From an uncultured Alphaproteobacteria bacterium (lineage in GTDB: Bacteria; Pseudomonadota; Alphaproteobacteria; Rickettsiales; Midichloriaceae), in the NCBI GenBank assembly GCA_903887235.1, contig CAISOX010000053.1:19241-83240 (forward strand): 64,000 bases of DNA, written 5' to 3'. Position numbers and translations under genes: made by a program. Shown in pieces: positions 17,122-46,066 of this stretch. The notes under the pieces are model-generated. The model searched no databases. It saw only the letters and a program-made list of their open reading frames with translations, and had not been told where the DNA came from. The stretch's first letter is position 1. Each line of letters opens with the position of its first letter.

Positions 17122-17226
17122 ATAGCATAATTCAGCTAAGTATTGACATCGTCATTCTTCGCTTATGTAGGTTTTACTACACTTCGCTCATCACTCCTTG
17201 TCACTACCTATCTGACCTAAAGCTAT
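17122..17226. repeat. Dispersed ~105-bp palindromic element, copy 1
   Basis: About 92% identical to 45963-46066 (7 mismatches, 1 gap, 54-bp identical core). ATAGC...GCTAT termini and an internal TGTAG/CTACA hairpin. Confidence 0.9.
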
Positions 17227-17265
17227 AGCACTTTTACCCTTGTTTTTTGGGGACAGATTTCAATC

Positions 17266-17319
17266 TTAACGTAAATTTAACGTAACCTTAACATAATTGT
17301 AACATTTCATGTGTATAAT
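17266..17319 (+). promoter_or_regulatory. Tandem CtrA-like boxes plus a -10 element
   Basis: TTAAC at 17266, 17277 and 17288 and GTAAC at 17299 (11-bp period, i.e. overlapping TTAA-N7-TTAAC), then TATAAT at 17314-17319. Confidence 0.65.
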
Positions 17320-17386
17320 ACAAAAATAAGCCCAAAGTTAATAATGACCTTGGGTGAATTTAACAATATAAGTGAAGGTTTACATT

Positions 17387-18190
17387 ATGAGACATTATTA
17401 TAGCATTGCTAATTTTTTAGCAGGAATAGGAATAGAAATATATGATAATTATTTTTCTAGTTACGGCGAAACTTACCAACAGTTGCTTGGTGAGATGCTC
17501 GGATGGTCACAAGGTCATACCGGGGAAGTACAAGCAATATTTAATAACAATGTCCTGCCAGAACTTTTTGTAAATCAATGGGGAAATAATTTAACAAGAA
17601 CAATAGTTAAGCAGTTTAAGCATCAGTATATTGAGTATGAAAATGGTAATATTAAAGGGTGGAATGGTGATGCCGCAGCCATAATGCAGCACACATCTCT
17701 TTGGAATTTCATGAGTAAGTGGAATAATGTCGCAACAATCGTTGCAGGTGTAAGTGATGTAATATATCAATTAATAGATGATGGAATATTAGATGAAACA
17801 ACAGTTACAGAACTCACAAAAAAAGTAGGGCTAACAATAGGTGCAATAAACTTGGTGGCGATTATGGGGATGACATTGCTAATAGTCCCAGAAGCCATGG
17901 GTACAGTGCTTGTAACTTCAGCCTTTTCAACTGTAATAATTATCCTGGAAAGCCTAAACCTTTTGGAAGATGTAAAAATCAATCTAATGTATCAATTAGG
18001 AGTGGGTTTTTCTAAGTTATATAACTTGGATATTGAGATAACTGAATTATATAAAATTATTGATGATAGCAAGGTTGAGCAAGATACCATCTCAGTTATT
18101 ATCGAAGAAGTAGAAGTTAATAACTTGCAGGGTATAGTGACAGAGCTTAACACATCTTCATGGAGTGAGGATTTTGCAATTACCACATAA
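17387..18190 (+). CDS. Hypothetical protein with a central hydrophobic hairpin
   Basis: Long ORF with ATG 17387 preceded by GAAGG (the track starts at GTG 17372). About 45-aa hydrophobic stretch VGLTIGAINLVAIMGMTLLIVPEAMGTVLVTSAFSTVIIILESLNLL. Confidence 0.75.
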   Translation: MRHYYSIANFLAGIGIEIYDNYFSSYGETYQQLLGEMLGWSQGHTGEVQAIFNNNVLPELFVNQWGNNLTRTIVKQFKHQYIEYENGNIKGWNGDAAAIMQHTSLWNFMSKWNNVATIVAGVSDVIYQLIDDGILDETTVTELTKKVGLTIGAINLVAIMGMTLLIVPEAMGTVLVTSAFSTVIIILESLNLLEDVKINLMYQLGVGFSKLYNLDIEITELYKIIDDSKVEQDTISVIIEEVEVNNLQGIVTELNTSSWSEDFAITT

Positions 18191-18369
18191 TTTCGGATAA
18201 AGAATTAAACTCCCCTTTTTTACAATAAAAAGCTTAAATAGCTAGCATTAGAATGAGCTGGTGTTTTAGAGTGGGGGGCTGGCTATTTGCAATTTTAAAG
18301 TTTCTGTAAATTTGCTAGCCCTTATCCAAAACTTGGGTTAATTATTAAAAATATAAAATCAATATAATA

Positions 18370-18398
18370 TTGTACTTGTAGTTAATTCGATTCATAAT
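18370..18398 (+). promoter_or_regulatory. Sigma70-type promoter for tRNA-Thr(CGT)
   Basis: TTGTAC-N17-CATAAT, ending 16 nt before the tRNA. Confidence 0.55.
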
Positions 18399-18414
18399 TA
18401 CATTGAATTTTTAT

Positions 18415-18489
18415 GCCGAAGTAGCACAGAGGTAGTGCAACTGATTCGTAATCAGTAGGTCGGGAGTTCAATTCTCCCCTTCGGCACCA
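18415..18489 (+). tRNA. tRNA-Thr(CGT)
   Basis: GCCGAAGTAGCACAGAGGTAGTGCAACTGATTCGTAATCAGTAGGTCGGGAGTTCAATTCTCCCCTTCGGCACCA. Confidence 0.96.
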
Positions 18490-18686
18490 GATTTTAATGA
18501 TTTTTCTGGCTAATTGTATAAAGCTTAATGCTTTTTCCCTCTTATATCTGGAGTGAATATTAAATATTTTTGAAAATCCTGATTCATATTATATAGCGTT
18601 TTTTAAAATTTCCTTCAAAATCTAAAATCTATATATGCTATATATGAAAAAAAACACCAAGATTTACTTGTAAGACACAATAAAAA

Positions 18687-18761
18687 TGGTGCCGCTAGTG
18701 GGAATCGAATCCACGACCTCTTCATTACCAATGAAGTGCACTACCACTGTGCTATAGCGGC
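18687..18761 (-). tRNA. tRNA-Thr(GGT)
   Basis: Reverse complement GCCGCTATAGCACAGTGGTAGTGCACTTCATTGGTAATGAAGAGGTCGTGGATTCGATTCCCACTAGCGGCACCA. Confidence 0.96.
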
Positions 18762-18766
18762 TAAAA

Positions 18767-18843
18767 TGGTAGCGAAGGAGGGACTCGAACCCCCGACACG
18801 CGGATTATGATTCCGCTGCTCTAACCAGCTGAGCTACTCCGCC
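18767..18843 (-). tRNA. tRNA-Met(CAT), probably elongator
   Basis: Reverse complement GGCGGAGTAGCTCAGCTGGTTAGAGCAGCGGAATCATAATCCGCGTGTCGGGGGTTCGAGTCCCTCCTTCGCTACCA. It lacks the three consecutive G-C anticodon-stem pairs and the C1 mismatch of initiator tRNA. Confidence 0.93.
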
Positions 18844-18921
18844 AAGAATAAAATAAAAAATTTATAGCATATTTAAATTGATTAGTTAATTGTTTGTTGC
18901 AAATTTGGTGAAATTAATTAT

Positions 18922-18951
18922 TTGACTAAGGTAAAATTTTGTTGTTAGAAT
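18922..18951 (+). promoter_or_regulatory. Near-consensus sigma70 promoter for the 18982 ORF
   Basis: TTGACT-N18-TAGAAT, with an AAGGTG RBS before the ATG. Confidence 0.5.
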
Positions 18952-18981
18952 TGATAATAATAATATTTAAAAGGTGAACAA

Positions 18982-19608
18982 ATGGCAGTGCAAGAAATTT
19001 TAGGTGAAGCTTTTGAAAAGGTTGCTAATATTCAAAATGCGGTAGATGATATAAAGGATGCGATGGGGAAAATTGAAAAAAATAATCCTATGATAGGTGA
19101 TTTGGAGGAATCAGTTGGTTCCATTACTAAAATTATTGAATCTGCTCAAGAAAAGAATATTTCTGGTGTAATTGAAAATGGAGTTGCGCTGGCTAAAGAA
19201 TTAAGTGAGTTGCCTGGTCATGTTAAGGAGTTTATTGATACCAAGGGCACAAGTTTACTTAATGATGGTAAGGATATAAAAGACGAAGTTGTTGATCTTG
19301 TAAAGCAAATAGGTAGTCAGTTTAATGAAATTATAGGGGATTTAAAAGAAGGAGGTTTGCAAGGCTTTCTTAAAGCATTTAATGATCTTACGAGTGCGAT
19401 TACTGAAGATATACAAGCCGGAAAAGGTATAACTGATAAGGTCGAGCACATGGTTCAGACATTAGAAGAAAAAGGTGATATTGCTAAGGTAAGTGAAGGG
19501 CTTAAAGGTGTTGGAGATGTAAAAGATGCAGGTGGTAAAGATGGTCAGCAAGCTCCTACCACACCAGGCCAAGATGTTGGTGGGCAGGATCAAGGAATGG
19601 CAATGTAA
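18982..19608 (+). CDS. Hypothetical all-helical amphipathic protein with a Gly/Gln-rich tail
   Basis: 208-aa ORF with its own promoter, RBS and terminator. No signal peptide or TM segment; no family recognised. Confidence 0.85.
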   Translation: MAVQEILGEAFEKVANIQNAVDDIKDAMGKIEKNNPMIGDLEESVGSITKIIESAQEKNISGVIENGVALAKELSELPGHVKEFIDTKGTSLLNDGKDIKDEVVDLVKQIGSQFNEIIGDLKEGGLQGFLKAFNDLTSAITEDIQAGKGITDKVEHMVQTLEEKGDIAKVSEGLKGVGDVKDAGGKDGQQAPTTPGQDVGGQDQGMAM

Positions 19609-19656
19609 TTTTAGTCAAGTTTATCCTTTATAGAATAATATTTAAGTTTGGTTTTT

Positions 19657-19684
19657 TATGGCGCATTTTTTGTTATGCGCCATA
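19657..19684. terminator. Bidirectional terminator between convergent genes
   Basis: TATGGCGCAT-loop-ATGCGCCATA, a 10-bp perfect stem. Confidence 0.7.
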
Positions 19685-19709
19685 TCTTTTGGAAAGTTAA
19701 GAAGTTGGT

Positions 19710-20960
19710 TTATTTCATGTAATGGTAGATCGTATCGATTGCAATTTTTGAAATATTTTTTTGTGATGTAATTATGTTATTTGAATTAGCAATCAACTGA
19801 TTTTTATAATTTGAATCGTTGAACAACTTCAGTAATTCACACTTTAATTCATCATAATCTCTAGCAACCACTATAGCCTTTTTGGTTTTAAAATCGTCAA
19901 TTATATCTTTAAAATTAGAAGTATGAGGTCCCACAATGATTGCGCAGCCTTGTTTTGCAGGTTCAATTATATTATGTCCTCCAATATTTACTAAAGATCC
20001 ACCAATAAAAACAATATCTGAAATCTCAAAATAATTGCCAAGTACCCCAAAAGATGACACTAACAATAATTCAGTTTCATGATGGTTATAGTTGTCAATA
20101 TCGGTTACATAGCATAATTTATACTTTTCTGCCATTGAGATTATTTCTTCAATTCGTTTTGGGTGACGAGGAATTATAATAGTAAATATGTTTGGAATTT
20201 TCTCTTTTATCTCTTTATGCAGTTTTATAATAATTTCTTCTTCCCCATTATGTGTGCTGGCTACAACAAATATATTTTTATTTTTTAATTTTGTTCTCGT
20301 AGTTTGAACATATTCGCTTGAGTAGGTTAATGGGGGAGATGAATATTTAAAATGCCCAATAAATTTTAGATTATTTTTAGTGAAAACATTAAATCTTTCA
20401 TAATCTAAATTGCTAGCTGTAAAAATCAGGGATAGTTTTTGCAATAAATTACTAGTAAAATTTTTATACCTACTCCATCTATTAAAAGAGATATCTGATA
20501 ATCTTGCGTTATATAATAATAAAGGAATTTTTTTTGTAGTCGCATCTATTAAATTTGGCCATATTTCTGATTCAATGAAAATTGCAACTTTAGGATTCCA
20601 ATGAGCTAAAAATCTATTAATAAAAAAAGTTATATCAATTGGGAGAAATTGATGTGTTGTATTTTTTATATTTGCAGATTTAAAAATTTTTGCAGATGTG
20701 AGTGTTATAGTTGTAATCAAGCAATGCACATCAGCTCTTTCATTAATAATAGTCTTAATTATTGGAATGGCCATATTAACTTCTCCAACACTTGCCGCAT
20801 GAAACCAAATTACCAATTTATTTTTGGGGCATTTGTCAGACTTCAGAACGAATTTTTGAGTTATACTTGCAAGATTCTCTTTATTTTTTATCAACCTAAT
20901 TATCATACATACGAATATTATAGGAAATAAAAAAATTGATATAATTTTGTATAATTTCAT
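19710..20960 (-). CDS. waaA: 3-deoxy-D-manno-octulosonic acid (Kdo) transferase
   Basis: IWFHAASVGE, ESEIWPNL, NARLS, ASTHNGEE, IPRHPKR and GGSLVNIGGHNIIEPA. Confidence 0.96.
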   Translation of the reverse strand: MKLYKIISIFLFPIIFVCMIIRLIKNKENLASITQKFVLKSDKCPKNKLVIWFHAASVGEVNMAIPIIKTIINERADVHCLITTITLTSAKIFKSANIKNTTHQFLPIDITFFINRFLAHWNPKVAIFIESEIWPNLIDATTKKIPLLLYNARLSDISFNRWSRYKNFTSNLLQKLSLIFTASNLDYERFNVFTKNNLKFIGHFKYSSPPLTYSSEYVQTTRTKLKNKNIFVVASTHNGEEEIIIKLHKEIKEKIPNIFTIIIPRHPKRIEEIISMAEKYKLCYVTDIDNYNHHETELLLVSSFGVLGNYFEISDIVFIGGSLVNIGGHNIIEPAKQGCAIIVGPHTSNFKDIIDDFKTKKAIVVARDYDELKCELLKLFNDSNYKNQLIANSNNIITSQKNISKIAIDTIYHYMK

Positions 20961-20981
20961 GACAGTTTTTACGTTTTTGCT

Positions 20982-21650
20982 CTAAAGGTATTTTTTTAAA
21001 TCTTGCATTTGTTTTATCATCAAAACCTCTAGTTTGCTATTTTGTTTTTCAGTAAAAAAATTTGGAGCAGAGATATCTACTATAATCTTGGTAAAAGGTA
21101 ATGGAATTGTAAATTCATCCCAACTTCTAAGAATTTTAGCTTTGGAGGATACAAAAGAAATATTAATGACTGGGATTTTGAATTTTGATGCAAGATTTGT
21201 AACGGCACTATTGACTTTATATCTAGGTCCTCTAGGGCCATCCGGAGTTATGACAATGCTTTCTTTATTTTTGATTGAATTTATAATATCTTTTGTTGCA
21301 GATAAACCACCTTTATAACTTGAGCCACGAATGGTTTTATGACCATATAATTGTACAAATTTATCAACATATTTACCGTCTTTATGCAAGGAAGTTAAAA
21401 CATTAAATTTTCCAAATTTTCTCATTATTTTTGGAAACACTATTATTTTGCCGTGCCATAGTGTTAAAAAACAAACCTCTTTAGAATTTAAAATATCTAT
21501 AGCTTTGTCATTAATATGAGTGTCTACTTTAGATGTAATAAATACAAATTCCAAATATATCTGTATTATTTTAGTGATGCATAATACAGATAAATTATTG
21601 TTAAGAAGTTTTTTTATGGACTTTTTTAATATTCTCTTAAATTGTATCAA
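20982..21650 (-). CDS. DUF374-family lysophospholipid acyltransferase-like protein
   Basis: WHGK, SLHKDG, TIRGSS, ITPDGPRGP and SWDEFTIPLPF; adjacent to waaA. Confidence 0.85.
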   Translation of the reverse strand: MIQFKRILKKSIKKLLNNNLSVLCITKIIQIYLEFVFITSKVDTHINDKAIDILNSKEVCFLTLWHGKIIVFPKIMRKFGKFNVLTSLHKDGKYVDKFVQLYGHKTIRGSSYKGGLSATKDIINSIKNKESIVITPDGPRGPRYKVNSAVTNLASKFKIPVINISFVSSKAKILRSWDEFTIPLPFTKIIVDISAPNFFTEKQNSKLEVLMIKQMQDLKKYL

Positions 21651-21877
21651 CGTATTTGTATAAAATATAATGATTATTTTAATCGCATACTACATTAAAG
21701 TTTGGTGTTGAGCTACAATTGCTTATATTATTTTTATAATATGATGTGATGCAGCATAAATTTTAAAAAAATCTGGATTTAAAAAAATAAACTTGCTAGC
21801 ATGTAATTAATTAGTAAATTGGAACCTTTATTCAGTATAATGCAAGGTTCTATGTGTGAGTGGGTTTTTAAGTAACA

Positions 21878-23524
21878 ATGGAATTTTTAAAAAGATTAAG
21901 TACAAATAAGTTAGTAATATTGGCTTTACTTATGGCTGCAATTTTAATAGGCGCTTTGTTCTTTGTAATGAGCTCTAAGCCTATTTATAGTAGTTTATAT
22001 AGCGAACTAAGTGATAATGATAGGTTAAATGTAACTTTAAAGTTGCAATCCATGGGTGTGGATTATAAGGTGGACATGAAAAATTCCCAAATACTGGTTC
22101 CGGCACATAAAGTGTTAGAATTAAGGATGTATTTTTCACAAAGTGGGCTTATTAGCTCTGGTAACATTGTTGGATATGAAATTTTTGACAAAGAAAATGG
22201 GCTTGGTAGTTCACAGTTTCTAAATAATATCAATTCTTTAAGGGCGCTTGAAGGAGAATTGTCCAGAACTATTAATAGTTTGTCTCAAATTGAAAATTCT
22301 AGAATTCATCTAGTTTTGCCAAAAAAAGAGCTTTTTTCTAAGTCAAATGTGACTCCTTCTGCTTCGATTATGATAAAATTAAAGCCTGGGGCAGCTATTT
22401 CAAAAAATGAAGTTAAAGCAATTACCAATTTGGTGTCAAAAGCTGTGCCTGATTTGCTTTCAGAAAATATCACTATTATGGATAGTATGGGGCATCCGTT
22501 GAAGATGCCAGGATCTGAAAACGAAGGTTTATTGGGTGGTGATAATTCTGAATTCAAACTTATAGAATATCAAAATTTGCTAGAGAAGCAGTTAAGATTA
22601 AAAATTGAACATCTTTTGGAGAGCCGAGTTGGTATAGGCAAGGTAAAGGTTGACGTTGCGGCAAAAATTAATAACAATAGAGAGGTAATGGTTTCTGAAT
22701 TTTTTGACCCAGATGGACAGGTGATTCGTTCCAAAAAAACTAGTGAAGAGAGAGAAAAAGATGGAGATGAGAATGAAAACATTTCAGTTGCTAATAATAT
22801 TCCAAATTCTAATCAGCAAATTTCTGGCTCTAGTCAAGTACCTAAGACAAAAAGTAAGCTAGATGATATCACAAATTACGAAATATCCAAAACAGTGACG
22901 AATACAATAATAGAGGAGGGGGGTGTTGAGAAACTTTCAGTTGGGATTTTGGTTGATGGATACTATGAGATAGATGAAAGTACTAAGAAACAGGTATATC
23001 ACAAAAGAAGTGATGAAGAGCTTGCGCAACTGAAGATATTAGTAAAATCTGCAATTGGCTTTGATGAAAAAAGGGGCGATAAATTAGAGATAATTAATCT
23101 TGAATTTACAAATGATAAGCTTCAGGATTCCGATCAAAAAGTAAATTGGTTAGATGAAAATCTAAAAAACCTTATTCAGATGGGTATGATAGGGGTAATT
23201 GTTATTTTGATAATATTACTTATCTTTAAACCAATATTATCAAGAATTTTAGAGGCAAATAAAAATGGAGCTGGGGAGATAAATAAATTTTTTGATTTTA
23301 AAAAATTAGGATTTAATAATAAATTTTCTGATGAGGGTAATATGGAAAATAAAAATTTTGATTCTTCAGATGACTCGAGTAGCAATGCTATAATCAACAA
23401 ACTACATATTGGAAACAAGCACAAACATATGTTAGATAGTGTAAATGAGTTAGTTGAAAAATATCCTGAAGAGGCAATAGATATATTGAAAAAATGGATA
23501 AATAATGATCAGAAAGTGCAGTAA
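21878..23524 (+). CDS. fliF: Flagellar MS-ring protein FliF
   Basis: GYEIFDK...GSSQF...RALEGELSRTI, RIHLVLPKKELF, PSASIMIKL, GFDEKRGD; two TM segments; C-terminal ELVEKYPEEAIDILKKW. Confidence 0.95.
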   Translation: MEFLKRLSTNKLVILALLMAAILIGALFFVMSSKPIYSSLYSELSDNDRLNVTLKLQSMGVDYKVDMKNSQILVPAHKVLELRMYFSQSGLISSGNIVGYEIFDKENGLGSSQFLNNINSLRALEGELSRTINSLSQIENSRIHLVLPKKELFSKSNVTPSASIMIKLKPGAAISKNEVKAITNLVSKAVPDLLSENITIMDSMGHPLKMPGSENEGLLGGDNSEFKLIEYQNLLEKQLRLKIEHLLESRVGIGKVKVDVAAKINNNREVMVSEFFDPDGQVIRSKKTSEEREKDGDENENISVANNIPNSNQQISGSSQVPKTKSKLDDITNYEISKTVTNTIIEEGGVEKLSVGILVDGYYEIDESTKKQVYHKRSDEELAQLKILVKSAIGFDEKRGDKLEIINLEFTNDKLQDSDQKVNWLDENLKNLIQMGMIGVIVILIILLIFKPILSRILEANKNGAGEINKFFDFKKLGFNNKFSDEGNMENKNFDSSDDSSSNAIINKLHIGNKHKHMLDSVNELVEKYPEEAIDILKKWINNDQKVQ

Positions 23525-23548
23525 TTATCAACCTATATATAGTATGTT

Positions 23549-24547
23549 ATGGAGCTAAAAAATCTAGAAAATGAAAATTTAGAAAGTGCAGCTGTTTTGC
23601 TTTTAGCATTGAATGAGGAAAATGCAGGGAAAATTTTAAAGCATTTATCGGAAAGTGATGTTTATAAAATATCTAATCAGATTGCTAATTTAAGAGATAT
23701 GGAGGCTGATAGAGTATTAGATACACTGTCGTATTTTGCTGATAGAATAAGTAATGCGAGTTTATTAGGCGGGCATTTACCTAGGTTAAGAAGATTTTTA
23801 CATAAAGTTTTTGACCAAGAAAAAGTGGATCTTATAATGCAAAATGTTGATGGTCCTTTGAATAAAACTTGGGAAATCATAGCTGGTATGAGTGATAAAG
23901 TGCTAGTTGAATATTTAAAAAACGAATATCCTCAAACAGTGGCGTTTATTTTATCTAAATTACCATCTCAAAAAGCATCAAAAATTATCAGTAAATTCTC
24001 GGAAAATTTTTCTTTTGAGGTAATTAAGAGAATTTTAAATATGGATGAGGTTAATAAGAGTGTACTTCTAAATTTAGAAAATACCTTAAGAAGAGATTTA
24101 GTTGAAAAATCCGACATTTCAAAAGAATTGGATAATAATCAAATCGTTGCAGATATATTTAACAATCTTGACAAAAAAGATGAAAGTCTGTTCTTTGAGC
24201 TATTAGAAAAATATGATGCTAATAAAGCGCAATTAGTTAGAAAAAATATGCTAATTTTTGATGATATTAAGAGAGTTGACTCAAGGGGAATGCAGATGCT
24301 AATAAGATACTCAGATAAATCAGTTTTACCAAAAGCGTTAAAATTTGCTGATGATAACATTAAGAATTGCTTTTTTAATAACATGTCTGCTAGAGCAGCA
24401 AAAATTCTAATTGAAGAAATTGATAATTCTAACAACACCAAGCTTGAAGAATCTGAGCTAGCTCAGAAAAATATATTGTTAATTTTGAGGGAGTTGATGA
24501 ATAAAGGACAAGTAACTTTAAGAGACATTATAAAAAATTCAGATTAA
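23549..24547 (+). CDS. fliG: Flagellar motor switch protein FliG
   Basis: AAVLLLAL, NEYPQTVAFILS (EHPQ-like), MLIFDDI and NMSARAAKILIEEI. Confidence 0.93.
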   Translation: MELKNLENENLESAAVLLLALNEENAGKILKHLSESDVYKISNQIANLRDMEADRVLDTLSYFADRISNASLLGGHLPRLRRFLHKVFDQEKVDLIMQNVDGPLNKTWEIIAGMSDKVLVEYLKNEYPQTVAFILSKLPSQKASKIISKFSENFSFEVIKRILNMDEVNKSVLLNLENTLRRDLVEKSDISKELDNNQIVADIFNNLDKKDESLFFELLEKYDANKAQLVRKNMLIFDDIKRVDSRGMQMLIRYSDKSVLPKALKFADDNIKNCFFNNMSARAAKILIEEIDNSNNTKLEESELAQKNILLILRELMNKGQVTLRDIIKNSD

Positions 24548-24548
24548 C

Positions 24549-25247: not shown

Positions 25248-25267
25248 TAAATTTTTGGTAACGTTAT

Positions 25268-25549
25268 ATGACTACAGAGACAGAAGATATTAAAAACAGA
25301 AATGGGATTAATTTAAATTTAAAGGCGATTTATGATGTCCCAATGAAATTAAAAGTCGTTTTAGGGCAAGCAGAATTTAAAGTAAGTGATTTACTTAAAT
25401 TAAATAAAGGCGATAAAATTGAGTTAGATAAAAAGCCTGGAGATCCTGTGGATTTATTTGTTAATGATAAATTAGTTGCAAAAGGGGAAATAGTATTGAT
25501 AGATGATAAGGTGGGTCTGACGCTTACAGAAATTATTGCAAATGATTAA
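25268..25549 (+). CDS. fliN: Flagellar motor switch protein FliN
   Basis: IYDVPMKLKVVLG...LLKL..G..IELDKKPGDPVDLFVNDKLVAKGEIV. Confidence 0.93.
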   Translation: MTTETEDIKNRNGINLNLKAIYDVPMKLKVVLGQAEFKVSDLLKLNKGDKIELDKKPGDPVDLFVNDKLVAKGEIVLIDDKVGLTLTEIIAND

Positions 25550-25634
25550 TTTGTATTTTATTTAAATTTTACTTGATTATTAAGTAACAAATTATATATT
25601 CAACGTATAAATAACATTTCAGTATAATTATATT

Positions 25635-25922: not shown

Positions 25923-25956
25923 TTGATTTTAAAGTCAGTTTTATGCGCCAGATAAA

Positions 25957-36682: not shown

Positions 36683-38662
36683 ATGACAATGTTTAAAATT
36701 GAAAGTGAATATAATCTGGCAGGGGATCAGGTGGCGGCTGTTGATAAACTTACTGAAGGTTTAAACGATGGCAATAGAAATCAAGTGTTATTGGGGGTTA
36801 CTGGTTCAGGAAAGACCTTCACGATGGCAAATATTATTCAGAGATGTCAAAAACCAGCACTCATCATGGCTCATAATAAAACATTAGCAGCACAGCTTTA
36901 CAATGAGATGAAAGGTTTTTTCCCCAGTAATGCTGTGGAATATTTTGTTTCGTATTATGATTATTACCAACCAGAAGCTTATATACCGCAATCAGATAGT
37001 TATATAGAAAAGGATGCGCAAATAAACGAACAAATTGATTTACTTAGGCATTCTGCCACTAGAGCATTGATGGAAAGAAAAGACGTAATAGTGATTGCTT
37101 CAGTTTCTTGTATTTATGGGTTAGGCGCTCCTGAGCTGTATTTACAAATGTCATTTAAATTAGAGCAGGGCAAGAAATATTCTCGCAGGGATATTATGCA
37201 AAAGCTCATTGAGCTACAATATAAGCGTATGGATTTGGATTTTACAAGAGGGGGGTTTAGAATCAGAGGAGAAAACGTAGATATATTCCCATCACATTAT
37301 CAAGATAGAGCTTGGAGGATAACTTTTTGCGACGATGAGGTTGAGAAAATTTATGAATTTGATTATTTAACGGGTGAAAGAATCAAAAAGCTTGATGCAA
37401 TTACCATATTTGCAAATAGTCATTATGTAACGCCCAGACCAACTCTTGAGCAAGCAATAGATTTAATTCAGGATGAATTGAAGGAGAGGGTTGAGGAATT
37501 TAAGTCATTGGATAAAATTGTAGAAGCACAAAGAATAGCTCAACGAACTAATTTTGATCTAGAAATGATTTTAGAATCAGGCTCTTGCAAAGGAATTGAA
37601 AATTATTCCAGATATTTATCTGGACGAAATGAAGGGGAAGCGCCACCAACTTTATTTGAATATTTACCGAAAGATGCATTGCTTTTTGTAGATGAAAGCC
37701 ACGTTACAGTACCGCAGATTGGGGGTATGTATAATGGAGATAGAGGGAGGAAAAAAACTCTTGTAGAGCATGGTTTTAGGCTACCTTCTGCGCTTGATAA
37801 TAGACCACTAAAATACGAAGAATGGGACTCAATGCGTCCACAGACAATTTTTGTTTCAGCAACGCCAAGTCCAAGAGAATTGGCATATACGAATGGTAAA
37901 TATGTGGAACAAATTATTAGACCAACGGGATTATTAGAACCAATATGTGAAGTGAGAAGTTGCGAAACACAGGTGGATGATTTGATAGGGGAGTGCAAAA
38001 TTTTAGCTAAAAAAGATAAAAGAATATTAGTTACAACCTTGACAAAAAGAATGTCAGAAGATTTAACCGACTATTTAAATGAAGTAAATATTAAGGCTGT
38101 ATATATGCACTCAGATATTAAAACATTAGAGAGAGTTCAAATAATTCAAGAATTACGTGAGGGTAAATATGATGTTTTAGTAGGGGTGAATTTGCTTAGA
38201 GAAGGTATTGATATTCCGGAATGTTCGTTGGTTTGTATTTTGGATGCTGATAAAGAGGGGTTTTTACGTTCAGAAACTTCACTGATTCAAACAATTGGGC
38301 GTGCAGCAAGGAATAGCGAAGGTAGGGTAATTTTGTATGCTGATAAAATTACTAACTCAATAAATAAAGCTCTTCAAGAAACTTCTAGAAGAAGAAAAAT
38401 TCAAGAAAAGCATAATGAAGAAAATGGTATTACTCCAACCACAATTAAAAAACAATTAATGAATTCTTTAAATTTAGCTGTAGCCAATTTAAGGGATAAA
38501 AATAATGATAAAAAAGTTATGGATTTAGAAGTCATAGAAAACGATATTGGAAAGTTAAAAAAGCAAATGCATGAAGCTGCTGAAAATTTAGAATTTGAAA
38601 AAGCGACAAAATTGCGAGATAAAATAGATAAATTGCAAAAGAGTTTATTGATTATCTCATAG
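36683..38662 (+). CDS. uvrB: Excinuclease ABC subunit B
   Basis: [43 protein letters not shown] and a C-terminal UVR coiled coil. Confidence 0.98.
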
Positions 38663-38664
38663 AT

Positions 38665-40737
38665 ATGAAGTGTAGCTTAATAAGATATTTATCCAAGGAT
38701 GTATCTGAATTAATGGATGTTGGCGATACAAGGGCAAAGCTATTTGCCAAACTTGGTATACGAAAATTTAAGGATTTATTATTTCATTTACCAACTGAAT
38801 ACATTGATAGAGGATACTCACCAAATATTTATGAAATTAAAAATGGAGATTTGGTAACTCTTGAAGTAGAAGTTTTTGAGATAAACATAAAAACCAGCTT
38901 TCGGCATAAATCACCTAGCAAAATATTATGTAAAAATGAATCTGGTTTTATTGAATTAATTTATTTTAATAAAATTCCACCATATATTAAGCAAAATTTT
39001 ATTGCTGAAAAAAATATTATAATTAGTGGAAAGGTAGAAATTCAAGATAAAAATTTTGTTATGGTGCATCCTGATGCAGTAGTCAAATCAAGTGAGAAAT
39101 ACAAAGTTCCTAAATTAGAAACAGTTTATCCGAAGGTTCAAGGTCTAACATCAAAATTAATTTCATACTTAATAAAGAAGATTTTAAGTAATATGCCTGA
39201 ATGTGAAAACTGGTTGCCTAATGATTTATTAGAAAAACAAGAATGGAAAGGGTTTGTGGAATCATTAAATATTTTGCATTCCCCACTTGATATTAATTCT
39301 GCAGATTTAAAAAATGCTAAATTGAGGATTGCTTTTGACGAATTACTTGCAAATCAAATATGCCTTAAAATTTTAAGGCAAAAACTTCAAAATGAATCAA
39401 AAAATTCTATAAAATTTTTTGGTAAATTGGTAGAGGGTTTTTTAGATAAATTGGAATTTACATTAACTAAAGAGCAACAGCTAGCAGTTGATTCAATTTC
39501 GCAAGACCAACTGGCAAAAAAGAAAATGCTAAGATTGCTTATGGGAGACGTCGGATGCGGAAAAACCTTTGTGGCTATCTGTGCCGCATTAAATGCTATA
39601 GAGGCAAAGATGCAAGTTGCTTTTATGGTGCCAACAGAAATTTTAGCACAACAGCATTATAGGAATATTGTCAATTACACAAAACAAATGGAGATTAAAG
39701 TTGAGCTTTTGGTTGGAAGTCTAAAAGTTTCAGAGAGGAAAAGAATTTTAAAAGAGTTGGAAAATGGTGATATTGACTTAGTTGTTGGAACCCACACTTT
39801 ATTTCAAGAAAAAGTGACATTTAAAAATTTAGGACTAGTAATAATTGATGAACAACATAAATTTGGTGTTAAGCAGAGGTTAAATCTCCTGCAAAAAGGC
39901 GATGATGTAGATTTATTAATGCTATCTGCTACCCCAATACCCAGGACTATTAGCATGTTAAATTATGGTGATATGGACGTAAGCATTATCAAACAAAAAC
40001 CAAAATCAAATGTTCCAATTATAACTAGTATGCTATCAAAATCTAAAATGGGTGATTTAATAGAAAAGATGGAAATGTTAATGAAACGAGGAGAGAGGGT
40101 TTATTGGGTATGCCCTTTGATAGAAGAGTCAGAAAAATTGCAATTATCCTATGTAGAAAATAGTTTTAAGATTTTGCAGGAAAAATTAGGAGACAAAGTT
40201 GCTATGATTCATGGTAAAATGAAGATTGAAGAGAAAGATGATGCAATGCAAAAATTTAAAAATGGCCAGAAGCTACTTTTAGTTTCAACCACAGTTATTG
40301 AGGTTGGTGTAGATGTTCCAGAAGCTACAGTTATGGTAATTGAAAATGCTGAAAGATTTGGCTTATCTCAATTGCACCAATTAAGAGGCAGAGTTGGAAG
40401 AGGAGCTCTTCAGTCATATTGTATATTGCTTTATGGAACGAAGTTGAGTTTAGATTCTAAAAAGAGATTGAGTATATTAACTAGTGTTAGTGATGGATTT
40501 GAAATTGCGGAAAAAGATTTGGAGATAAGAGGAAGTGGAGATTATTTAGGGGTCAGGCAGAGTGGTGAATCTGGATTTAGATTTTTCGATGTATGTAGAG
40601 ATGCGTCATTAGTACCTATTGCTGATGAATATGCAAGTGAGCTTATCAAACAACCACTAGCTGACTCAATAACGATTCTATTAGAAGTATTTGAAAAAGA
40701 TATATATTTTAAAGAGCAGGGAACAAGTTTGACATAG
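38665..40737 (+). CDS. recG: ATP-dependent DNA helicase RecG
   Basis: RLLMGDVGCGKT, IIDEQHKFG, SATPIPRT, QLHQLRGRVGRG and DLEIRGSG. Confidence 0.97.
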   Translation: MKCSLIRYLSKDVSELMDVGDTRAKLFAKLGIRKFKDLLFHLPTEYIDRGYSPNIYEIKNGDLVTLEVEVFEINIKTSFRHKSPSKILCKNESGFIELIYFNKIPPYIKQNFIAEKNIIISGKVEIQDKNFVMVHPDAVVKSSEKYKVPKLETVYPKVQGLTSKLISYLIKKILSNMPECENWLPNDLLEKQEWKGFVESLNILHSPLDINSADLKNAKLRIAFDELLANQICLKILRQKLQNESKNSIKFFGKLVEGFLDKLEFTLTKEQQLAVDSISQDQLAKKKMLRLLMGDVGCGKTFVAICAALNAIEAKMQVAFMVPTEILAQQHYRNIVNYTKQMEIKVELLVGSLKVSERKRILKELENGDIDLVVGTHTLFQEKVTFKNLGLVIIDEQHKFGVKQRLNLLQKGDDVDLLMLSATPIPRTISMLNYGDMDVSIIKQKPKSNVPIITSMLSKSKMGDLIEKMEMLMKRGERVYWVCPLIEESEKLQLSYVENSFKILQEKLGDKVAMIHGKMKIEEKDDAMQKFKNGQKLLLVSTTVIEVGVDVPEATVMVIENAERFGLSQLHQLRGRVGRGALQSYCILLYGTKLSLDSKKRLSILTSVSDGFEIAEKDLEIRGSGDYLGVRQSGESGFRFFDVCRDASLVPIADEYASELIKQPLADSITILLEVFEKDIYFKEQGTSLT

Positions 40738-40758
40738 TTTTATTGTTTGGTGCTTGCA

Positions 40759-40786
40759 TTGCAAGGATGTATTAGCATCCTTGCAA
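40759..40786. terminator. Hairpin terminator between recG and the convergent ORF
   Basis: TTGCAAGGATG-tattag-CATCCTTGCAA, an 11-bp perfect stem. Confidence 0.7.
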
Positions 40787-40826
40787 CCAAGATATTTTAT
40801 TTTATAATACCAAATTCTATTGATAA

Positions 40827-42455
40827 TTAATTATCAATAAACTCGAAAGCTAAAATTTTATTAAATTCTGCATCATCATGATGTGTAAGATCATAATTTT
40901 CATAATGCCAAATTTCATTATCATTTGCAGTTTGCAGTAATATATATAGATTAACCAATGGAGCGCATTCATCAGAAAATGAATTTTCTCCATAAGTGGA
41001 TACTTTTTCATTTTCCATCTTGAAGCACTCTTGACCTTCTGCATATTTTATTACTTTTTTACCGTCTTTATCAGAATGGGAGTATCTCTTGATAAAATTA
41101 CTAAAATTGGTAGCTACCATGCTCTCTAATTTCGATGCATTATTAGTGTTCATGAAATTTAAAAATTGAAGATGATTGGCATCATCCTCATCCATGCCAA
41201 TTGAATCTAAAAAATTATGCAATGAGTATATTTTTTCACAATCACTTGATTCTGATTCTAAGCTTTTTAAGCTGGAACCACTAATTTCAAAGCATTTTGT
41301 GTTTGATTCTCTCTGATTTATAGAAGTTGAGGTATCTTTTTCGACTTCATCTCCATTATTGTTTGAAAAAAAGTATTCGGATTTTATTTTTTCAATAGTT
41401 GGATTGAGCATATCATAGGCATTTTTTTCAGAATTAATTGAAGTTGGTTCGTCTGCCTTATTTGTGATAATAGCTTTGTTTTCTAATTTTGTATTAGTGT
41501 TAGAGAATTTTGTTTTTAAATCATTAAAACCATCGCTTAGCTTATTTTTTAAATCCCAAAAATTAGTTTTTAAATTATCATAACTAGCTTTAGCATTAGC
41601 TTTAAAATCATCATAATGGGCTTTAAAATTAGTTTTAAAATTAGTTTTTAAATTGCTATATTTAATTTTTAAAGCCTCATACTTTTCTTGTATGAATAAT
41701 TCACTATTAGAAATTGTACATTCATTGTTTGTTGACACAGTTTTTAGTTTTTCATCAGCATTTGCCAAAGCAGCTTTTAAATTAGTATGCTCTTTTTCGA
41801 GCTCTGCTTTTTCATTAAAAATAGTACTATTCTTATTTTCTAAAGCTTTAAGTTTTTCATCAGTACTTATTGACACAGTTTTTAGTTTTTCTTCTGTACT
41901 TGCCAATGCATTTTTTAAATTAGCATATTCTTCCTCTAGCGCAGCTTTTTCTTTTGAAAGTGTATTATTTTTCTTTTCCAATTCCTGAACTTTTGCAACT
42001 ATATTACCTGATTCATCTATAGTCTTAGTATTTGGAATAGCAATAAAATTTGTATGTATAAGGGACGGGTTAACAACTGTACCTTTATTTGAGGTGTCTT
42101 CAGTAGTTTTTGCTACATCCTTGTTGTCCTTATCAGCACTTGCCAATGCATTTTTTAAATTGGCATGTTCTCCCTCTAGTTTAGTGTATTTTTTCTCAAG
42201 CTCTGCTTTTTCAGAAGAAACCCTACTATTAAGGATTTTTAAATTCTTCACTACTTCTGTTTCTGTATTTGCTGACACAGTTTTTAGTTTTTCATCAGCA
42301 TTTGCCAAAGCAGCTTTTAAATTAGCATGCTCTTTCTTAAGTTCTGTATTTTTTGTTGAAAGTGTATAATTTGTACTTTTCAATTCCTGAACTTCTGCAA
42401 CTATGTTCTTTTTATTTGGAATATTTTCTTTCAATTGATCTGGTGATTTTGCCAT
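40827..42455 (-). CDS. Hypothetical coiled-coil repeat protein (542 aa)
   Basis: Four imperfect copies of (EKAE)LEKEHANLKAALANADEKLKTVS; AGAGGAG RBS; 13 nt downstream of the beta-barrel gene. Confidence 0.85.
   Translation of the reverse strand: MAKSPDQLKENIPNKKNIVAEVQELKSTNYTLSTKNTELKKEHANLKAALANADEKLKTVSANTETEVVKNLKILNSRVSSEKAELEKKYTKLEGEHANLKNALASADKDNKDVAKTTEDTSNKGTVVNPSLIHTNFIAIPNTKTIDESGNIVAKVQELEKKNNTLSKEKAALEEEYANLKNALASTEEKLKTVSISTDEKLKALENKNSTIFNEKAELEKEHTNLKAALANADEKLKTVSTNNECTISNSELFIQEKYEALKIKYSNLKTNFKTNFKAHYDDFKANAKASYDNLKTNFWDLKNKLSDGFNDLKTKFSNTNTKLENKAIITNKADEPTSINSEKNAYDMLNPTIEKIKSEYFFSNNNGDEVEKDTSTSINQRESNTKCFEISGSSLKSLESESSDCEKIYSLHNFLDSIGMDEDDANHLQFLNFMNTNNASKLESMVATNFSNFIKRYSHSDKDGKKVIKYAEGQECFKMENEKVSTYGENSFSDECAPLVNLYILLQTANDNEIWHYENYDLTHHDDAEFNKILAFEFIDN
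41733..42335. repeat. Intragenic direct repeats in the coiled-coil gene
   Basis: 41733-41795 and 42273-42335 match over 63 bp with 1 mismatch (540-bp offset). Shorter related copies near 41871 and 41898/42138. Confidence 0.9.
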
Positions 42456-42468
42456 TTTCTCCTCTATT

Positions 42469-43167
42469 TTAGTTAAAATGATATGTCAATCCTAAGTTAA
42501 CGGTGTGTATATTAAGTTTAGATTTTTTTGGGTCATCTTTCTTATTATCATCTTCATCATAACCATATCCTAATGATTTAACATGGCCTAGATTTACATA
42601 TTTATAATTTGTCCCAATGCTAACTTTTGTATTTAGTTTATATTCAACTCCCAAACCAGCATTCCAAGCAAATTGGCTATGCGTATTTTTGACTTCACTG
42701 TAAATAATTTGATTGGTAGTATCGTCCTTTATTGTGTAGTTGCCGAATTTATTTTTTGAAACGCCAGCTCCTGCTGTTATGTAAGGCATAAAATGATTTT
42801 CATTATTAAAATTATATTGAAAATTTAAATTAAATAAATCTGCCCTTACATTATGCTTAATAGTGGCATTTTGTTGATTTATTGTGTGATTCATATTTCT
42901 GAAATTTGTATAGTCTAAATATGTTGATAAGTTATTTGTTAATTTATAACCCCAGCCAACATTGTACAACATTGTATTAGATGGTTTTTTACTTTCTCTA
43001 TCACCATCATATTCATCGGTTAATTTTTCAGGAAAGCCGTAACCAACATTCATTTTAAAAAAAGGTTTTTCATACCAATTTGCATAAGTTGTAATTGGAT
43101 TTGTAGCAAAAGATAATGAAAATCCAAATATAATTGAAGTAGTGTATAAAATATTTTTTCCCCTCAT
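42469..43167 (-). CDS. Small outer-membrane beta-barrel protein (porin/opacity/Adr-like)
   Basis: Signal peptide, alternating beta-strands, PYITAGAGVS, QFAWNAGLGVEYKL, terminal LGLTYHF(N) aromatic signature and GGAGG RBS. Confidence 0.85.
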   Translation of the reverse strand: MRGKNILYTTSIIFGFSLSFATNPITTYANWYEKPFFKMNVGYGFPEKLTDEYDGDRESKKPSNTMLYNVGWGYKLTNNLSTYLDYTNFRNMNHTINQQNATIKHNVRADLFNLNFQYNFNNENHFMPYITAGAGVSKNKFGNYTIKDDTTNQIIYSEVKNTHSQFAWNAGLGVEYKLNTKVSIGTNYKYVNLGHVKSLGYGYDEDDNKKDDPKKSKLNIHTVNLGLTYHFN

Positions 43168-43329
43168 ATCAATTTCCTCCTTGATTATTATTTTTATTCT
43201 GTTACTGTACTAATGGTTGTAAAAAAGCCATGGTTGTGAGCAACGTTCTATATAAGAACAGGGTGGATTTCACACCCATCTAGTAGCACTTAAATTAAGC
43301 GTACTAATTAATTGTAATGAATGCAAATA

Positions 43330-44640
43330 TTAGTTGTGCAATTTTATTGCTAAATCTTTAATTTTTTTATGTAGGGCTGTTCTTTCCATGCCGATGTGTT
43401 TGGCTGTATGTGTGATGTTGCTATCAAATTTTTGAAGGTTAAATTCTATGTATTTTTTTTCAAATAATTGCTTTGCATCTTTTAATGATTTGTCGAAATA
43501 GGCAGTAAAAATGTTTTTGCTATTTTGAGAAAGTGAAAAATCATTAGAGTTTGATGTGGTTTCTTGATTTAAAAGTAATTTCAACAGTAAGTTTTCAGTA
43601 AAATTTTTTAATTCTAAAATATTTCCTGGCCAATCATAGTCTAGGAATTGTGCATAAAATTCACTACCCAGGTTTAAATTATTGATATAATAATGTTTTT
43701 TAAAATTATTAATGTAATAATCTACAATAAGTTTTATATCTTGTTTTCTCTCTCTCAATGGAGGCGCTTCTAATATTGTTAATGATAGTCTTTGAAGCAA
43801 GCTTTGATTAAAATTTGAATCCTGAATTAGTTGCTCTTGGTTTATAGTAGAAGAGCAAATTATTTTACCCAATTGATTAGAGTTTTGTGAATTATTCAAG
43901 TAATTAAGTAGCTTTTTTTGCAAGTATTTTGATAATTTTGAAATTTCGCTCAGATATATCGTTGATCTTTTGGCTTTTTCAAATATAGAAGCAGATTCAG
44001 TATTTCCGAATAAAATGTTATCCAATTCCTTCTCGGAATGATTTTCAATGCTAACTTTATAAAATGGTTTGTCATTAGAATTTTGATAAGCATGAATCAA
44101 ACGTGCAATTTTTTCTTTGCCAGTTCCAATCTCTCCAAATATCATAGTTCTAGCATTTGATCCTATATTGTTTGCAATTTTACTTTTAATTTCAGTAATT
44201 TGTTTACTGGTGCCTATAATAGAAGCTAAATCATTTTGTTGTTTTAGTTGAGTGCTATATTGTTGAAGCTCAATATTTTCTAATGTTCTTTTTACTGTTA
44301 TTACCAATTTTTCTGATTTAAACGGTTTTTCAATAAAGTTATAGGCTCCCAGCTTTATGGCTTTTACTGCAGTTTCAATATTACCATGTCCGCTAATCAC
44401 TATAACATGAATTTCTTTGTAAGTTTCCCTGATGATTTTTAATAAGCCCAATCCATCCATATCACTACCTTCCAGCCAAATATCGAGAATGACTATTTTT
44501 GGGGAAGATTTTTTGAGTATTTCTAATGCACTTGATGAGTTGAGTACAAATTCTGTTTTTAAATGGAGTTCGTCTTCAATAATATCCTTTATTAGCTCCC
44601 CAATGTCTTGCTCATCATCGATTACTAATATGTCAAACAT
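43330..44640 (-). CDS. ntrX: NtrX-like response regulator (REC-AAA-HTH)
   Basis: ILVIDDE, VILDIWLEGSDMDG, SGHGNIETAVKAIKLGAYNFIEKPF, GEIGTGKE and a Fis-type HTH (IGMERTALHKKIKDL). GAFTGA is absent and Walker B reads LSEI. Confidence 0.85.
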   Translation of the reverse strand: MFDILVIDDEQDIGELIKDIIEDELHLKTEFVLNSSSALEILKKSSPKIVILDIWLEGSDMDGLGLLKIIRETYKEIHVIVISGHGNIETAVKAIKLGAYNFIEKPFKSEKLVITVKRTLENIELQQYSTQLKQQNDLASIIGTSKQITEIKSKIANNIGSNARTMIFGEIGTGKEKIARLIHAYQNSNDKPFYKVSIENHSEKELDNILFGNTESASIFEKAKRSTIYLSEISKLSKYLQKKLLNYLNNSQNSNQLGKIICSSTINQEQLIQDSNFNQSLLQRLSLTILEAPPLRERKQDIKLIVDYYINNFKKHYYINNLNLGSEFYAQFLDYDWPGNILELKNFTENLLLKLLLNQETTSNSNDFSLSQNSKNIFTAYFDKSLKDAKQLFEKKYIEFNLQKFDSNITHTAKHIGMERTALHKKIKDLAIKLHN

Positions 44641-45284
44641 TACTTGTTTTTGTTTTTAAAGCTACCCTTAGCATATAGCAGTATTGCAATAATGATAACA
44701 ACAAAAATAATCACTATGTTAAATCTTTTGATATAAGTATATATTAACTCTTCATTTGCACTAATTATATGGCCAAGATAAAGAAGAAATGAAAGCCAAA
44801 TGAAGCTTCCTAGAATAGTGTATAGAATAAAAAGTTTTAAATCCATTCTAGCAAGTCCAGCTGGAAACGAAATAAAATGCTTAATTCCAGGGAGCATCCT
44901 TCCGAAAAATGTTGATATAGCGCCATATTTATTAAAAAACAATTCTAAAGAAAGTAACTGGCCAGATTTTAAAAAAAAGTATTTTCCATAATTTATGAAT
45001 AACTTTCTACCAAAGTGGTATGCCATAAAATAATTAAGAAGTGATCCCAACAAAGTGCCAGCTAAGCTAGATATTAAAACAGGGGCTAAGTGCAATTCTC
45101 CTTTAGCAATTAGAAATCCTGCTGGTATTAATGTTAATTCGCTAGGAACTGGTATAAAAGTACTTTCTATGAAAGTCATGATAAAAATCCCTATATAACC
45201 AAAAGTTTGGACAAAATTTAAAATTAGCTTGAATACTTCTCCAAAAAACTCTACAAACATTAATATATTGATGTTTTTATGCAA
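44640..45284 (-). CDS. DedA family membrane protein
   Basis: ESTFIPVPSELTLIPAG and FFGRMLPGIKHFISFPAG. Confidence 0.92.
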   Translation of the reverse strand: MHKNINILMFVEFFGEVFKLILNFVQTFGYIGIFIMTFIESTFIPVPSELTLIPAGFLIAKGELHLAPVLISSLAGTLLGSLLNYFMAYHFGRKLFINYGKYFFLKSGQLLSLELFFNKYGAISTFFGRMLPGIKHFISFPAGLARMDLKLFILYTILGSFIWLSFLLYLGHIISANEELIYTYIKRFNIVIIFVVIIIAILLYAKGSFKNKNK

Positions 45285-45339
45285 TTTATCTAGAATAATA
45301 TAAGTAAAAAAATATAAATCACAATTACTATTTGTTTGT

Positions 45340-45966
45340 ATGGATGTTTTAGACGAAATTAGGGATGAGGTTAATAAGGAAAGGTTTTATAATTTTCTTC
45401 AAAATTATGGAAAGTACGTTGCGATTTTTGTTTTAGCTACATTTATTTGTTTCATCATTTATTTTTGGTGGGATAAACACAAAAATAATGTGTTATTAGA
45501 GGAGGCTAGTGAATACGGAGACGCAATAGGCTCTCTTGATAAGGATAAAATTTCTAGACTAGAAAAGCTTAAAGTAGGCAAAACAGTATATTCGGATTTA
45601 GCGAAACTCCAATTGGGTGCGTATTATGCTATTAATAAGGATTTTAATCGTGCTATACATAATTATGAATTACTAATAGACTCAAAAAGTACAGATAAAA
45701 TTTATAGAGACTATGCAGAGTTGATGGTAATTAAGATGAAAATATCATCAGGGAAGATTAACTCAGAGGAAGGGATAGAAATGTATGAGAATTTTTATAA
45801 AAATGCAGAATATTTTAATAATATTGCAGTTTTGGGTGAATCAATATTGCTCATGAATAAAGGTGAAAAAGGTAAAGTTTCTTCTAAATTGAATGAAATA
45901 CTAACTGATAATGAATCTCCAAATCTGTTGATGTATCTTGCAAGAATGATAGATAAGAGGGTATAG
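45340..45966 (+). CDS. YfgM-like single-TM TPR protein (DUF2659-like)
   Basis: DEIRDEVNKER...YGKY, then a TM helix and TPR-like helices. Confidence 0.7.
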   Translation: MDVLDEIRDEVNKERFYNFLQNYGKYVAIFVLATFICFIIYFWWDKHKNNVLLEEASEYGDAIGSLDKDKISRLEKLKVGKTVYSDLAKLQLGAYYAINKDFNRAIHNYELLIDSKSTDKIYRDYAELMVIKMKISSGKINSEEGIEMYENFYKNAEYFNNIAVLGESILLMNKGEKGKVSSKLNEILTDNESPNLLMYLARMIDKRV

Positions 45967-46066
45967 CATAATTCAGATATGCATTGACATCGTCATTCTT
46001 CGCTTATGTAGGTTTTACTACACTTCGCTCATCACTTCTTGTCACTACATATCTGACTCAAGCTAT
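45963..46066. repeat. Dispersed ~105-bp palindromic element, copy 2
   Basis: GTATAGC...GCTATAC termini, TCAGATATG/CATATCTGA stem and a 54-bp core identical to 17142-17195. It overlaps the upstream gene's TAG. Confidence 0.9.

Follow-up and report, generated by a model that had tools for sequence, protein, structure and literature searches.

A high-copy palindromic repeat at gene ends in a freshwater relative of Candidatus Bandiella numerosa

What is a hairpin-forming sequence of about 106 nt doing twice, each time at the end of a gene, in one stretch of Rickettsiales DNA? The stretch, referred to here as the window, comprises 64,000 nt of contig CAISOX010000053.1 from an uncultured member of the Midichloriaceae, and a reading made from its sequence alone had proposed that the two copies represent a lineage-specific, dispersed palindromic family. 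This proposal has stood up well: the element is present in high copy number, has sharp borders, is variably present among close strains and has no match in Rfam or, by pattern scan and searches of plasmids, in Rickettsia. [quoted passage not shown] It is not a gene and not a proven regulatory RNA.

Architecture of the two copies

Both copies lie on the plus strand and measure 107 and 106 nt. In a global alignment 99 of 107 columns are identical (92.5%) and the longest identical run is 54 nt, which confirms the shared strand, the identity of ~92% and the 54-nt core that had been read from the sequence. The flanks of the two copies are unrelated and the common block is ~106 nt; a 48-nt core occurs twice in the window against none expected from 100 shuffles. 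The 5' end of copy 1 is degenerate, with AATAGC for TATAGC, which is intact in a near-identical strain (contig L011). The copies and the parts of copy 2 are located as follows.

17121/17122-17227, plus strand: copy 1, 107 nt, covariance-model score 125 bits
45962-46067, plus strand: copy 2, 106 nt, TATAGC...GCTATA, covariance-model score 139 bits
45962-45989, plus strand: left arm of copy 2, with TATAGC (45962-45967), TCAGATATG (45973-45981) and TGACA (45985-45989)
45998-46029, plus strand: centre of copy 2, with the 7-nt direct repeats CTTCGCT at 45998-46004 and 46023-46029
46007-46022, plus strand: small hairpin of copy 2, TGTAG-GTTTTA-CTACA, between the CTTCGCT repeats
46040-46067, plus strand: right arm of copy 2, with TGTCA (46040-46044), CATATCTGA (46048-46056) and GCTATA (46062-46067)

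The predicted long hairpin carrying an inner TGTAG/CTACA hairpin flanked by repeats is found in the minimum-free-energy folds of both copies, with the stems TATAGC/GCTATA, TCAGATATG/CATATCTGA, TGACA/TGTCA and the inner TGTAG/CTACA. For copies 1 and 2, respectively, the fold energies are -21.1 and -31.4 kcal/mol on the plus strand (z -2.2 and -5.0), and -31.6 and -41.2 kcal/mol on the minus strand (z -3.0 and -7.5). The element as a whole is an imperfect palindrome, and the ends of copy 2 form imperfect terminal inverted repeats of the sort that a strict definition of MITEs asks for, the first 18 nt matching the reverse complement of the last 18 at 15 positions. At least two plus-strand frames of copy 2 had been read as open over the core, and so they are: frame 1 is free of stops over the full element and frame 2 is open past a TAA at codon 3, while all three minus frames are closed. 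Overall the element provides stops in five of the six reading frames, 5-36 nt from its ends.

A covariance-model search of the window and of ~150 kb of related loci returned intact copies only, and no decayed or diverged ones. One contig of run X15 carries, at window position 46002, a variant without the central small hairpin in which CATTCTTCG is joined to TTCATCAC; it could stem from deletion of what lies between the CTTCGCT repeats, or represent an ancestral form without the central module.

Copy number, spread and gain between strains

The window is AT-rich, with a G+C content of 31%, and among its genes are those of the str/S10 ribosomal operon, those of the flagellum and one for a sigma-54 activator. 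At the protein level its DUF2659 product shares 96% identity with that of Candidatus Bandiella numerosa, for which a complete genome of 1,448,196 bp is available (CP104164.1, locus L015). Since the window strain (run X8) shares only ~16% of its 31-mers with contig L001 of the B. numerosa isolate Ewo1, and its intergenic DNA is ~94% identical to CP104164.1, it is a sister lineage within or beside B. numerosa (Midichloriaceae, Rickettsiales); by 31-mer sharing and flank identity, B. numerosa strains are ~5-6% diverged from the window lineage. Metagenomes from ponds and other fresh waters are rich in the window strain, and so are the sequencing runs of three host organisms. At the end of the Ewo1 contig, L001 4668-4700 reaches a depth of 10^5-10^6 in host runs and 4296-4660 has zero depth in two of them, and this contig end may be host-derived or chimeric.

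Copy number was estimated in public runs at both window loci as the k-mer depth of Logan contigs summed over the core and divided by the depth of the flanks. The ratio is ~72 in X3, 73 in X8 and ~60 in X12 and X15, higher in X6 and X7, and 60-95 overall. Adjacent unitigs overlap and such sums can over-count up to ~2-fold; with this allowed for, the depth ratios correspond to roughly 30-70 copies per genome in the window lineage, which agrees with the density of 2 copies per 64 kb in the window if the genome is ~1.45 Mb. Ewo1-type B. numerosa runs, found via L001, gave ratios of 3.7, 1.0 and 2.0, or 1-4 copies, and the three copies visible in these runs occupy loci that are occupied in the window lineage as well. 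With the covariance model no copy was found in the 20.6 kb of CP104164.1 that were examined or in 37 kb of a more distant Midichloriaceae genome. It follows from the low ratios, the shared loci and these copy-free stretches that the element has long been present at low number in B. numerosa, and that in the window lineage it burst to tens of copies.

A structure-aware core pattern with 20 specified bases, run against one genome per species (185,579 species), returned a single match, B. numerosa Ewo1 (L001). A scan of JGI metagenomes added 11 further copies on 10 freshwater contigs (L002-L011), among them L011, where a near-identical strain carries the orthologue of copy 1. All of these copies, the 11 metagenomic ones and that of Ewo1, have the common borders TATAGC...GCTATA within unrelated flanks, and in the Logan contigs the flanks diverge exactly at 45962 and 46067, that is at the T of TATAGC and after GCTATA. 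Searches of plasmids (blastn), phages and viral contigs gave no match to the element, and the covariance model found none outside the B. numerosa complex (50 kb of the Rickettsia felis plasmid pRF; a metagenome-assembled genome of a distant member of the Midichloriaceae). Positions that lay outside the search patterns are 4-5% off the consensus in each segment, the same as the rest of the element, so that the perfect look of the core is in part a product of the way in which copies were sought. In the left arm, one 8-nt stretch departs from the consensus by 22%, and the right arm does so by ~12%. Copy 1 is followed directly, on its downstream side, by a second multi-copy sequence (window ~17268-17450, 3-9 times the flank depth in Logan contigs), which spans the upstream region and the start of an open reading frame (ORF) at 17372-18190 (272 aa, no Pfam match).

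At three loci the element is present in some strains and absent from others, and outgroups identify two of these as gains. CP104164.1 (L015), L016, L017 and L018 and a contig of X25 lack copy 2. Since nearly all orthologues of the gene encode 210 aa (...RVQS* where the element is lacking), as does that of the 77%-identical outgroup L023, the empty state is ancestral and copy 2 a gain. The alleles read ...AAG AGG GTT CAA TCG TAG when empty and ...AAG AGG GTA TAG, followed by the rest of the element, when filled; the insertion changed ...RVQS* to ...RV*, two codons being lost and the TAG donated by the element. The check for target duplications called for by the sequence-only reading revealed none at copy 2, and no TA stands at the insertion point of the empty site AGAGGGTTCAATCGTAG. 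Because there is neither a duplicated target nor a TA in the empty site, copy 2 did not arise by TA-duplicating transposition of the IS630 or Correia type; it fits a mechanism without target duplication, or one involving repair. A second gain lies downstream of RecG, where the element is present in L018 and L007 and absent from the window, L012, CP104164.1 and the outgroup L023. The corresponding site in the window is

40738-40826, no strand: empty site between the convergent RecG gene and the 542-aa ORF, filled in L018 and L007

At the third locus, copy 1 is missing in X12, X15 and X19, where 10 nt stand in place of 150 nt of the window. Shared direct repeats flank the element at none of 12 of the 13 distinct loci; only the RecG locus has an imperfect 10-nt repeat.

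The 542-aa ORF beside the empty site (40827-42455, minus strand; no Pfam match) consists largely of ~138-nt internal repeats (families D1-D3) and ranges from 527 to 584 aa among related strains. The spacer between the DUF2659 gene and a permease gene is a recurrent insertion site: in the distant Midichloriaceae genome (L023 10634-12923) it contains an IS6-family transposase fragment, and in other assemblies (L024-L026) a patatin gene. In X3, X8 and X25, 37 nt stand where L006 has a 541-nt segment (2567-3109) beside a tRNA gene and genes for a phage-type prohead protease and capsid, a polymorphism unrelated to the element.

Placement at gene ends and tests of function

The sequence-only reading had both copies start at or near the stop codon of a plus-strand gene. 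This is borne out by the two genes concerned, copy 1 beginning 4-5 nt past a TAA and copy 2 containing the TAG:

15237-17117, plus strand: DUF3857 gene, TAA 4-5 nt before copy 1
45340-45966, plus strand: DUF2659/TPR_21 gene, 208 aa, last codon and TAG (45964-45966) inside copy 2

The same holds more widely. At all 13 distinct loci the element is intergenic or overlaps only a stop codon; the stop lies within 25 nt of an element end or inside the element at 10 of them, and inside it at six. It may be a TAG at +3 to +5 (L001, copy 2) or a TAA at +8 to +10 (L004, L005), or it is reached from the convergent side (L006a, L010). No start codon of a credible gene comes closer than 40 nt at any of the 13. 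The adjacent gene end is faced by the plus side only at five loci, by the minus side only at three and by both at two, and since either end of the element can face the adjacent gene there is no orientation preference relative to transcription. The neighbours include genes for a flagellar rod protein, a methyltransferase, HPF and dnaN, an AFG1 ATPase, flagellin, phage-type capsid and protease, an EVE-domain protein, RecG, NuoB, an acyltransferase and RNase T2, among others; the flanking genes are unrelated housekeeping genes, with no link to any gene class.

The individual loci offer some further observations. With an opposite-strand tRNA gene as its neighbour, copy L006b (L006 2329-2513) is placed 17 nt upstream of that gene's 5' end, and a metatranscriptome contig of X25 joins this tRNA flank to the element. 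In contig L003 a single element has the L004 copy's left flank on one side and the L005 copy's right flank on the other, which reflects either recombination between copies or a chimeric metagenome assembly. Upstream of the DUF3857 gene a 128-nt direct repeat with 95% identity occurs at 13118-13245 and 15056-15183. It corresponds to the 3' end of a ferredoxin gene (12901-13227), including the stop codon and a few bases past it, and is found again right after an ABC-transporter gene (13270-15051); it looks as if the ABC-transporter gene was inserted with a duplication of the ferredoxin gene end.

A selected RNA structure finds no support when 14 copies are aligned under the full hairpin: the share of paired cells is 91.8%, that of the shuffles 91.5%, changes on both sides occur in only one pair, and variation mostly breaks pairs. 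The hairpin comes down from the founder and shows no visible maintenance by compensation. Comparison with Rfam, as had been advised, revealed no match to a described family: at the gathering score the window yields only four tRNAs, and at permissive settings the best hits over copy 2 are eukaryotic microRNA and small nucleolar RNA models at 16-20 bits, against thresholds of 37-95. A terminator scan of 45800-46300 gave no terminator-like site. A U-tract terminator is lacking too, for what follows copy 1 differs from what follows copy 2 and copy 2 has no T-run; nor does a promoter consensus occur in or at the element. The raw-read RNA runs of a host species, X40 and X41, contain no reads of the bacterium. 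Parts of the element do occur in a metatranscriptome assembly, the contigs of which carry no strand information and may include DNA. Given their position at gene ends, the copies may plausibly affect mRNA 3' ends.

In-frame insertion into proteins, for which the sequence-only reading had proposed a test, has not been upheld. Translations of the two open frames, compared with 5.8 billion predicted proteins, gave a single, weak match of 67 aa (E=1.7e-3), and all 13 loci are intergenic in the sense given above; on the strength of that one weak match the idea of a protein-coding palindrome was rejected.

Mobilisation, rival readings and meaning

A non-autonomous mobile element is the reading that best accommodates the copy number, the sharp borders and the polymorphism among strains. 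A number of observations weigh against it. No transposase is encoded in the window, in ~150 kb of related loci or by the genes beside 10 other copies. The copy number rests on unitig depths, with their possible over-count of up to ~2-fold, and the exact 31-mers of the 5' core shared by the ~30-70 copies could reflect constraint and not youth, although positions outside the search patterns are as divergent from the consensus (4-5%) as the rest of the element. None of the three comparisons between filled and empty alleles displays a clean cut-and-paste footprint: the copy 2 allele is the element plus CAG in place of TTCAA, the copy 1 alleles differ as 150 and 10 nt, and the imperfect 10-nt flanking repeat at the RecG locus lies in an indel-rich stretch. 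New copies may arise by recombination or repair.

How the element moves is the point on which the alternatives divide. The possibility that a Y1 (HUH) transposase moves it as single-stranded DNA, either a REP-associated tyrosine transposase (RAYT), as for REP/REPIN, or the TnpA of an IS200/IS605 insertion sequence (IS), is a more specific version of the best explanation and does not contradict it. We consider it a tentative possibility. It would account for the lack of a target duplication at copy 2, the clearest gain, for a ~106-nt hairpin made of two inverted halves as in REPINs, and for strictly extragenic placement, and the GTAG/CTAC of the inner hairpin is the tetranucleotide typical of REPs, which serves as a lead only. 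Yet the cognate RAYT or IS200/IS605 gene envisaged by the sequence-only reading is missing from the window and from beside the 10 other copies, and no Y1 transposase gene occurs in the ~150 kb of related loci; moreover, no tetra- or pentanucleotide is conserved 5' of the copies, the arms are not small palindromes in themselves, and a precise insertion does not account for all the difference between empty and filled alleles. A guide-target link in the style of IS200/IS605 was also tried, comparing by eye the hypervariable 8-nt arm segment with the flanks, and no correlation was seen. An integron attC site was rejected as well, the core sites GTTRRRY/RYYYAAC being absent. A classical MITE derived from an internally deleted DDE insertion sequence, IS630/Tc1-like as in RUP or Correia-like, with the terminal TA...TA as target duplications, is quite improbable. 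The imperfect terminal inverted repeats (15/18 nt) speak for it, nearly every copy is bounded by TA on both sides, and 106 nt is near the size of RUP (107 bp); but the ancestral empty site of copy 2, AGAGGGTTCAATCGTAG, and its outgroup counterpart, AGAATTCAACAATAG, have neither a TA at the insertion point nor a duplication, so that the TA-duplication (IS630/Correia) model is contradicted for this copy. Nor did the window, the ~150 kb of related loci or the loose ends of contigs reveal any full-length parent IS that shares the element's ends. Of the properties of a strict MITE, then, insertion polymorphism is observed and a fixed-length target-site duplication is not.

The remaining rivals dispense with selfish spread or assign the element to something already described. 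A cis-acting RNA or DNA module under selection, such as a stabiliser or processing site in 3' untranslated regions, a terminator, a small RNA family or a protein-binding site, would make the copy number the size of a regulon. The strong concentration at gene 3' ends, the very stable hairpin (z down to -7.5), the tens of copies with identical core 31-mers and the element parts in a metatranscriptome assembly would all suit it. It is nonetheless unlikely: covariation does not exceed that of shuffles, the strand that faces the neighbouring gene varies, a U-tract terminator, promoter consensus and Rfam match are all lacking, close relatives manage with 1-4 copies, presence at individual genes varies among near-identical strains, and the metatranscriptome contigs are of uncertain strand and possibly of DNA origin. 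Membership of a described RPE family is very unlikely, despite a host in the order Rickettsiales, a similar size and palindromic fold and one fully open reading frame across the element, given that the core pattern had no Rickettsia match among the 185,579 species representatives, the covariance model none at E<=10 in the 50 kb of R. felis pRF and blastn none in any plasmid, and that there are no in-frame insertions in predicted proteins. Finally, a one-off local duplication or an assembly artefact might have been suspected from the presence of only two copies in the 64-kb window, and the sequence-only reading had named a mere two copies genome-wide, without covariation, as an outcome that would speak for a one-off duplication. 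Since many independent runs and assemblies contain the element, tens of times and in differing flanks, this rival is refuted and has next to no probability.

Among the known systems, the RPEs (RPE-1 to RPE-10) are close in kind. Like the element they are palindromic repeats of the Rickettsiales, ~100-150 bp long with long hairpins and in tens to hundreds of copies that vary in number by lineage, with no known transposase and no regular target duplication; at 106 nt, -21 to -41 kcal/mol and a depth ratio of 60-95, the element falls within their range of size, hairpin and copy number. There is, on the other hand, no detectable sequence relationship, Rickettsia having been covered by the pattern scan and the 50 kb of pRF. 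RPEs are noted for in-frame insertion inside protein-coding genes (PMC10969869; PMC1166351), whereas the element is absent from predicted proteins and only clips the last codons of genes. REPs and REPINs are likewise extragenic hairpins of ~100 nt made of inverted halves, without target duplication, in tens to hundreds of copies and often after genes, and REPs stabilise upstream mRNA. The element is such an extragenic hairpin doublet without target duplication; it differs in that no RAYT gene is seen, its halves are not REP-like small palindromes, and it has a distinct central module, the small hairpin between 7-nt direct repeats. The Correia elements of Neisseria (NEMIS) are of a similar size class and show insertion polymorphism among strains; they are co-transcribed with their neighbours and their mobiliser is unidentified. 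Their inverted ends begin with TATAG, a likeness to the ends of the element that extends over ~5 nt only. Correia elements have a TA duplication, promoters and an IHF site (PMC10969869), in contrast to the TA-free empty site and the lack of a promoter consensus here. ERIC/IRU and RUP are imperfect palindromes of 107-127 bp that are extragenic and lie in transcribed regions, and ERIC copies at gene 3' ends alter mRNA decay (PMC10969869); they belong to other phyla and are unrelated in sequence, and for RUP a parent, IS630-Spn1, and a TA duplication are known, neither of which is seen for the element. Because no Rickettsia match, in-frame insertions, TA duplication, RAYT or parent IS was found in the sequences covered, the element is not a member of the RPE, REPIN, Correia or ERIC families.

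The selfish-repeat reading suggests the following course of events. Having no coding capacity of its own, the element would spread in trans, and the trans-acting machinery would most likely recognise the long hairpin or cruciform with its inverted ends; insertion, judging from the one clear gain, would leave no regular target duplication. From 1-4 copies in B. numerosa strains of ciliate-type hosts it would have risen to ~30-70 in the related freshwater lineage, with insertion probably continuing while the strains of that lineage diverged. Surviving copies appear to accumulate just past gene ends or in the last few codons, where insertions would be nearly neutral because the element supplies stop codons in all but one of the six frames and lacks a consensus for promoters and terminators; elsewhere a new copy would disrupt a gene or promoter and be lost. 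Transcripts reading through from upstream would acquire a stable 3' hairpin, which could slow exonucleases or attract RNase III, as in REP, ERIC and Correia, an effect that would be secondary to the spread of the element.

In many respects this is an ordinary selfish repeat. It is also, as far as the literature searched shows, the first palindromic repeat family described for the Midichloriaceae, no paper on such repeats in this family or in Bandiella having been found. It explains the fragmented assemblies of these genomes, and it provides a concrete case in which an insertion clips the last two codons of a gene and donates the stop codon. A more far-reaching and rather doubtful prospect is that its mechanism, without target duplication and aimed at gene ends, is distinctive, and that the burst, between lineages only ~5-6% apart, marks the recent gain or activation of the enzyme behind the movement of orphan palindromes (RPE, Correia and REPIN type) in Rickettsiales, or alternatively that dozens of mRNAs share the element as a 3'-end RNA hairpin for which its copies have been co-opted. 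Bacteria commonly contain small palindromic repeats, and the machinery that mobilises RPE, Correia and ERIC has never been identified. Sister lineages of one uncultured intracellular symbiont with 1-4 copies on one side and tens of copies with ongoing gains on the other constitute a natural contrast, and a comparison of gene content between their closed genomes could point to the mobilising enzyme.

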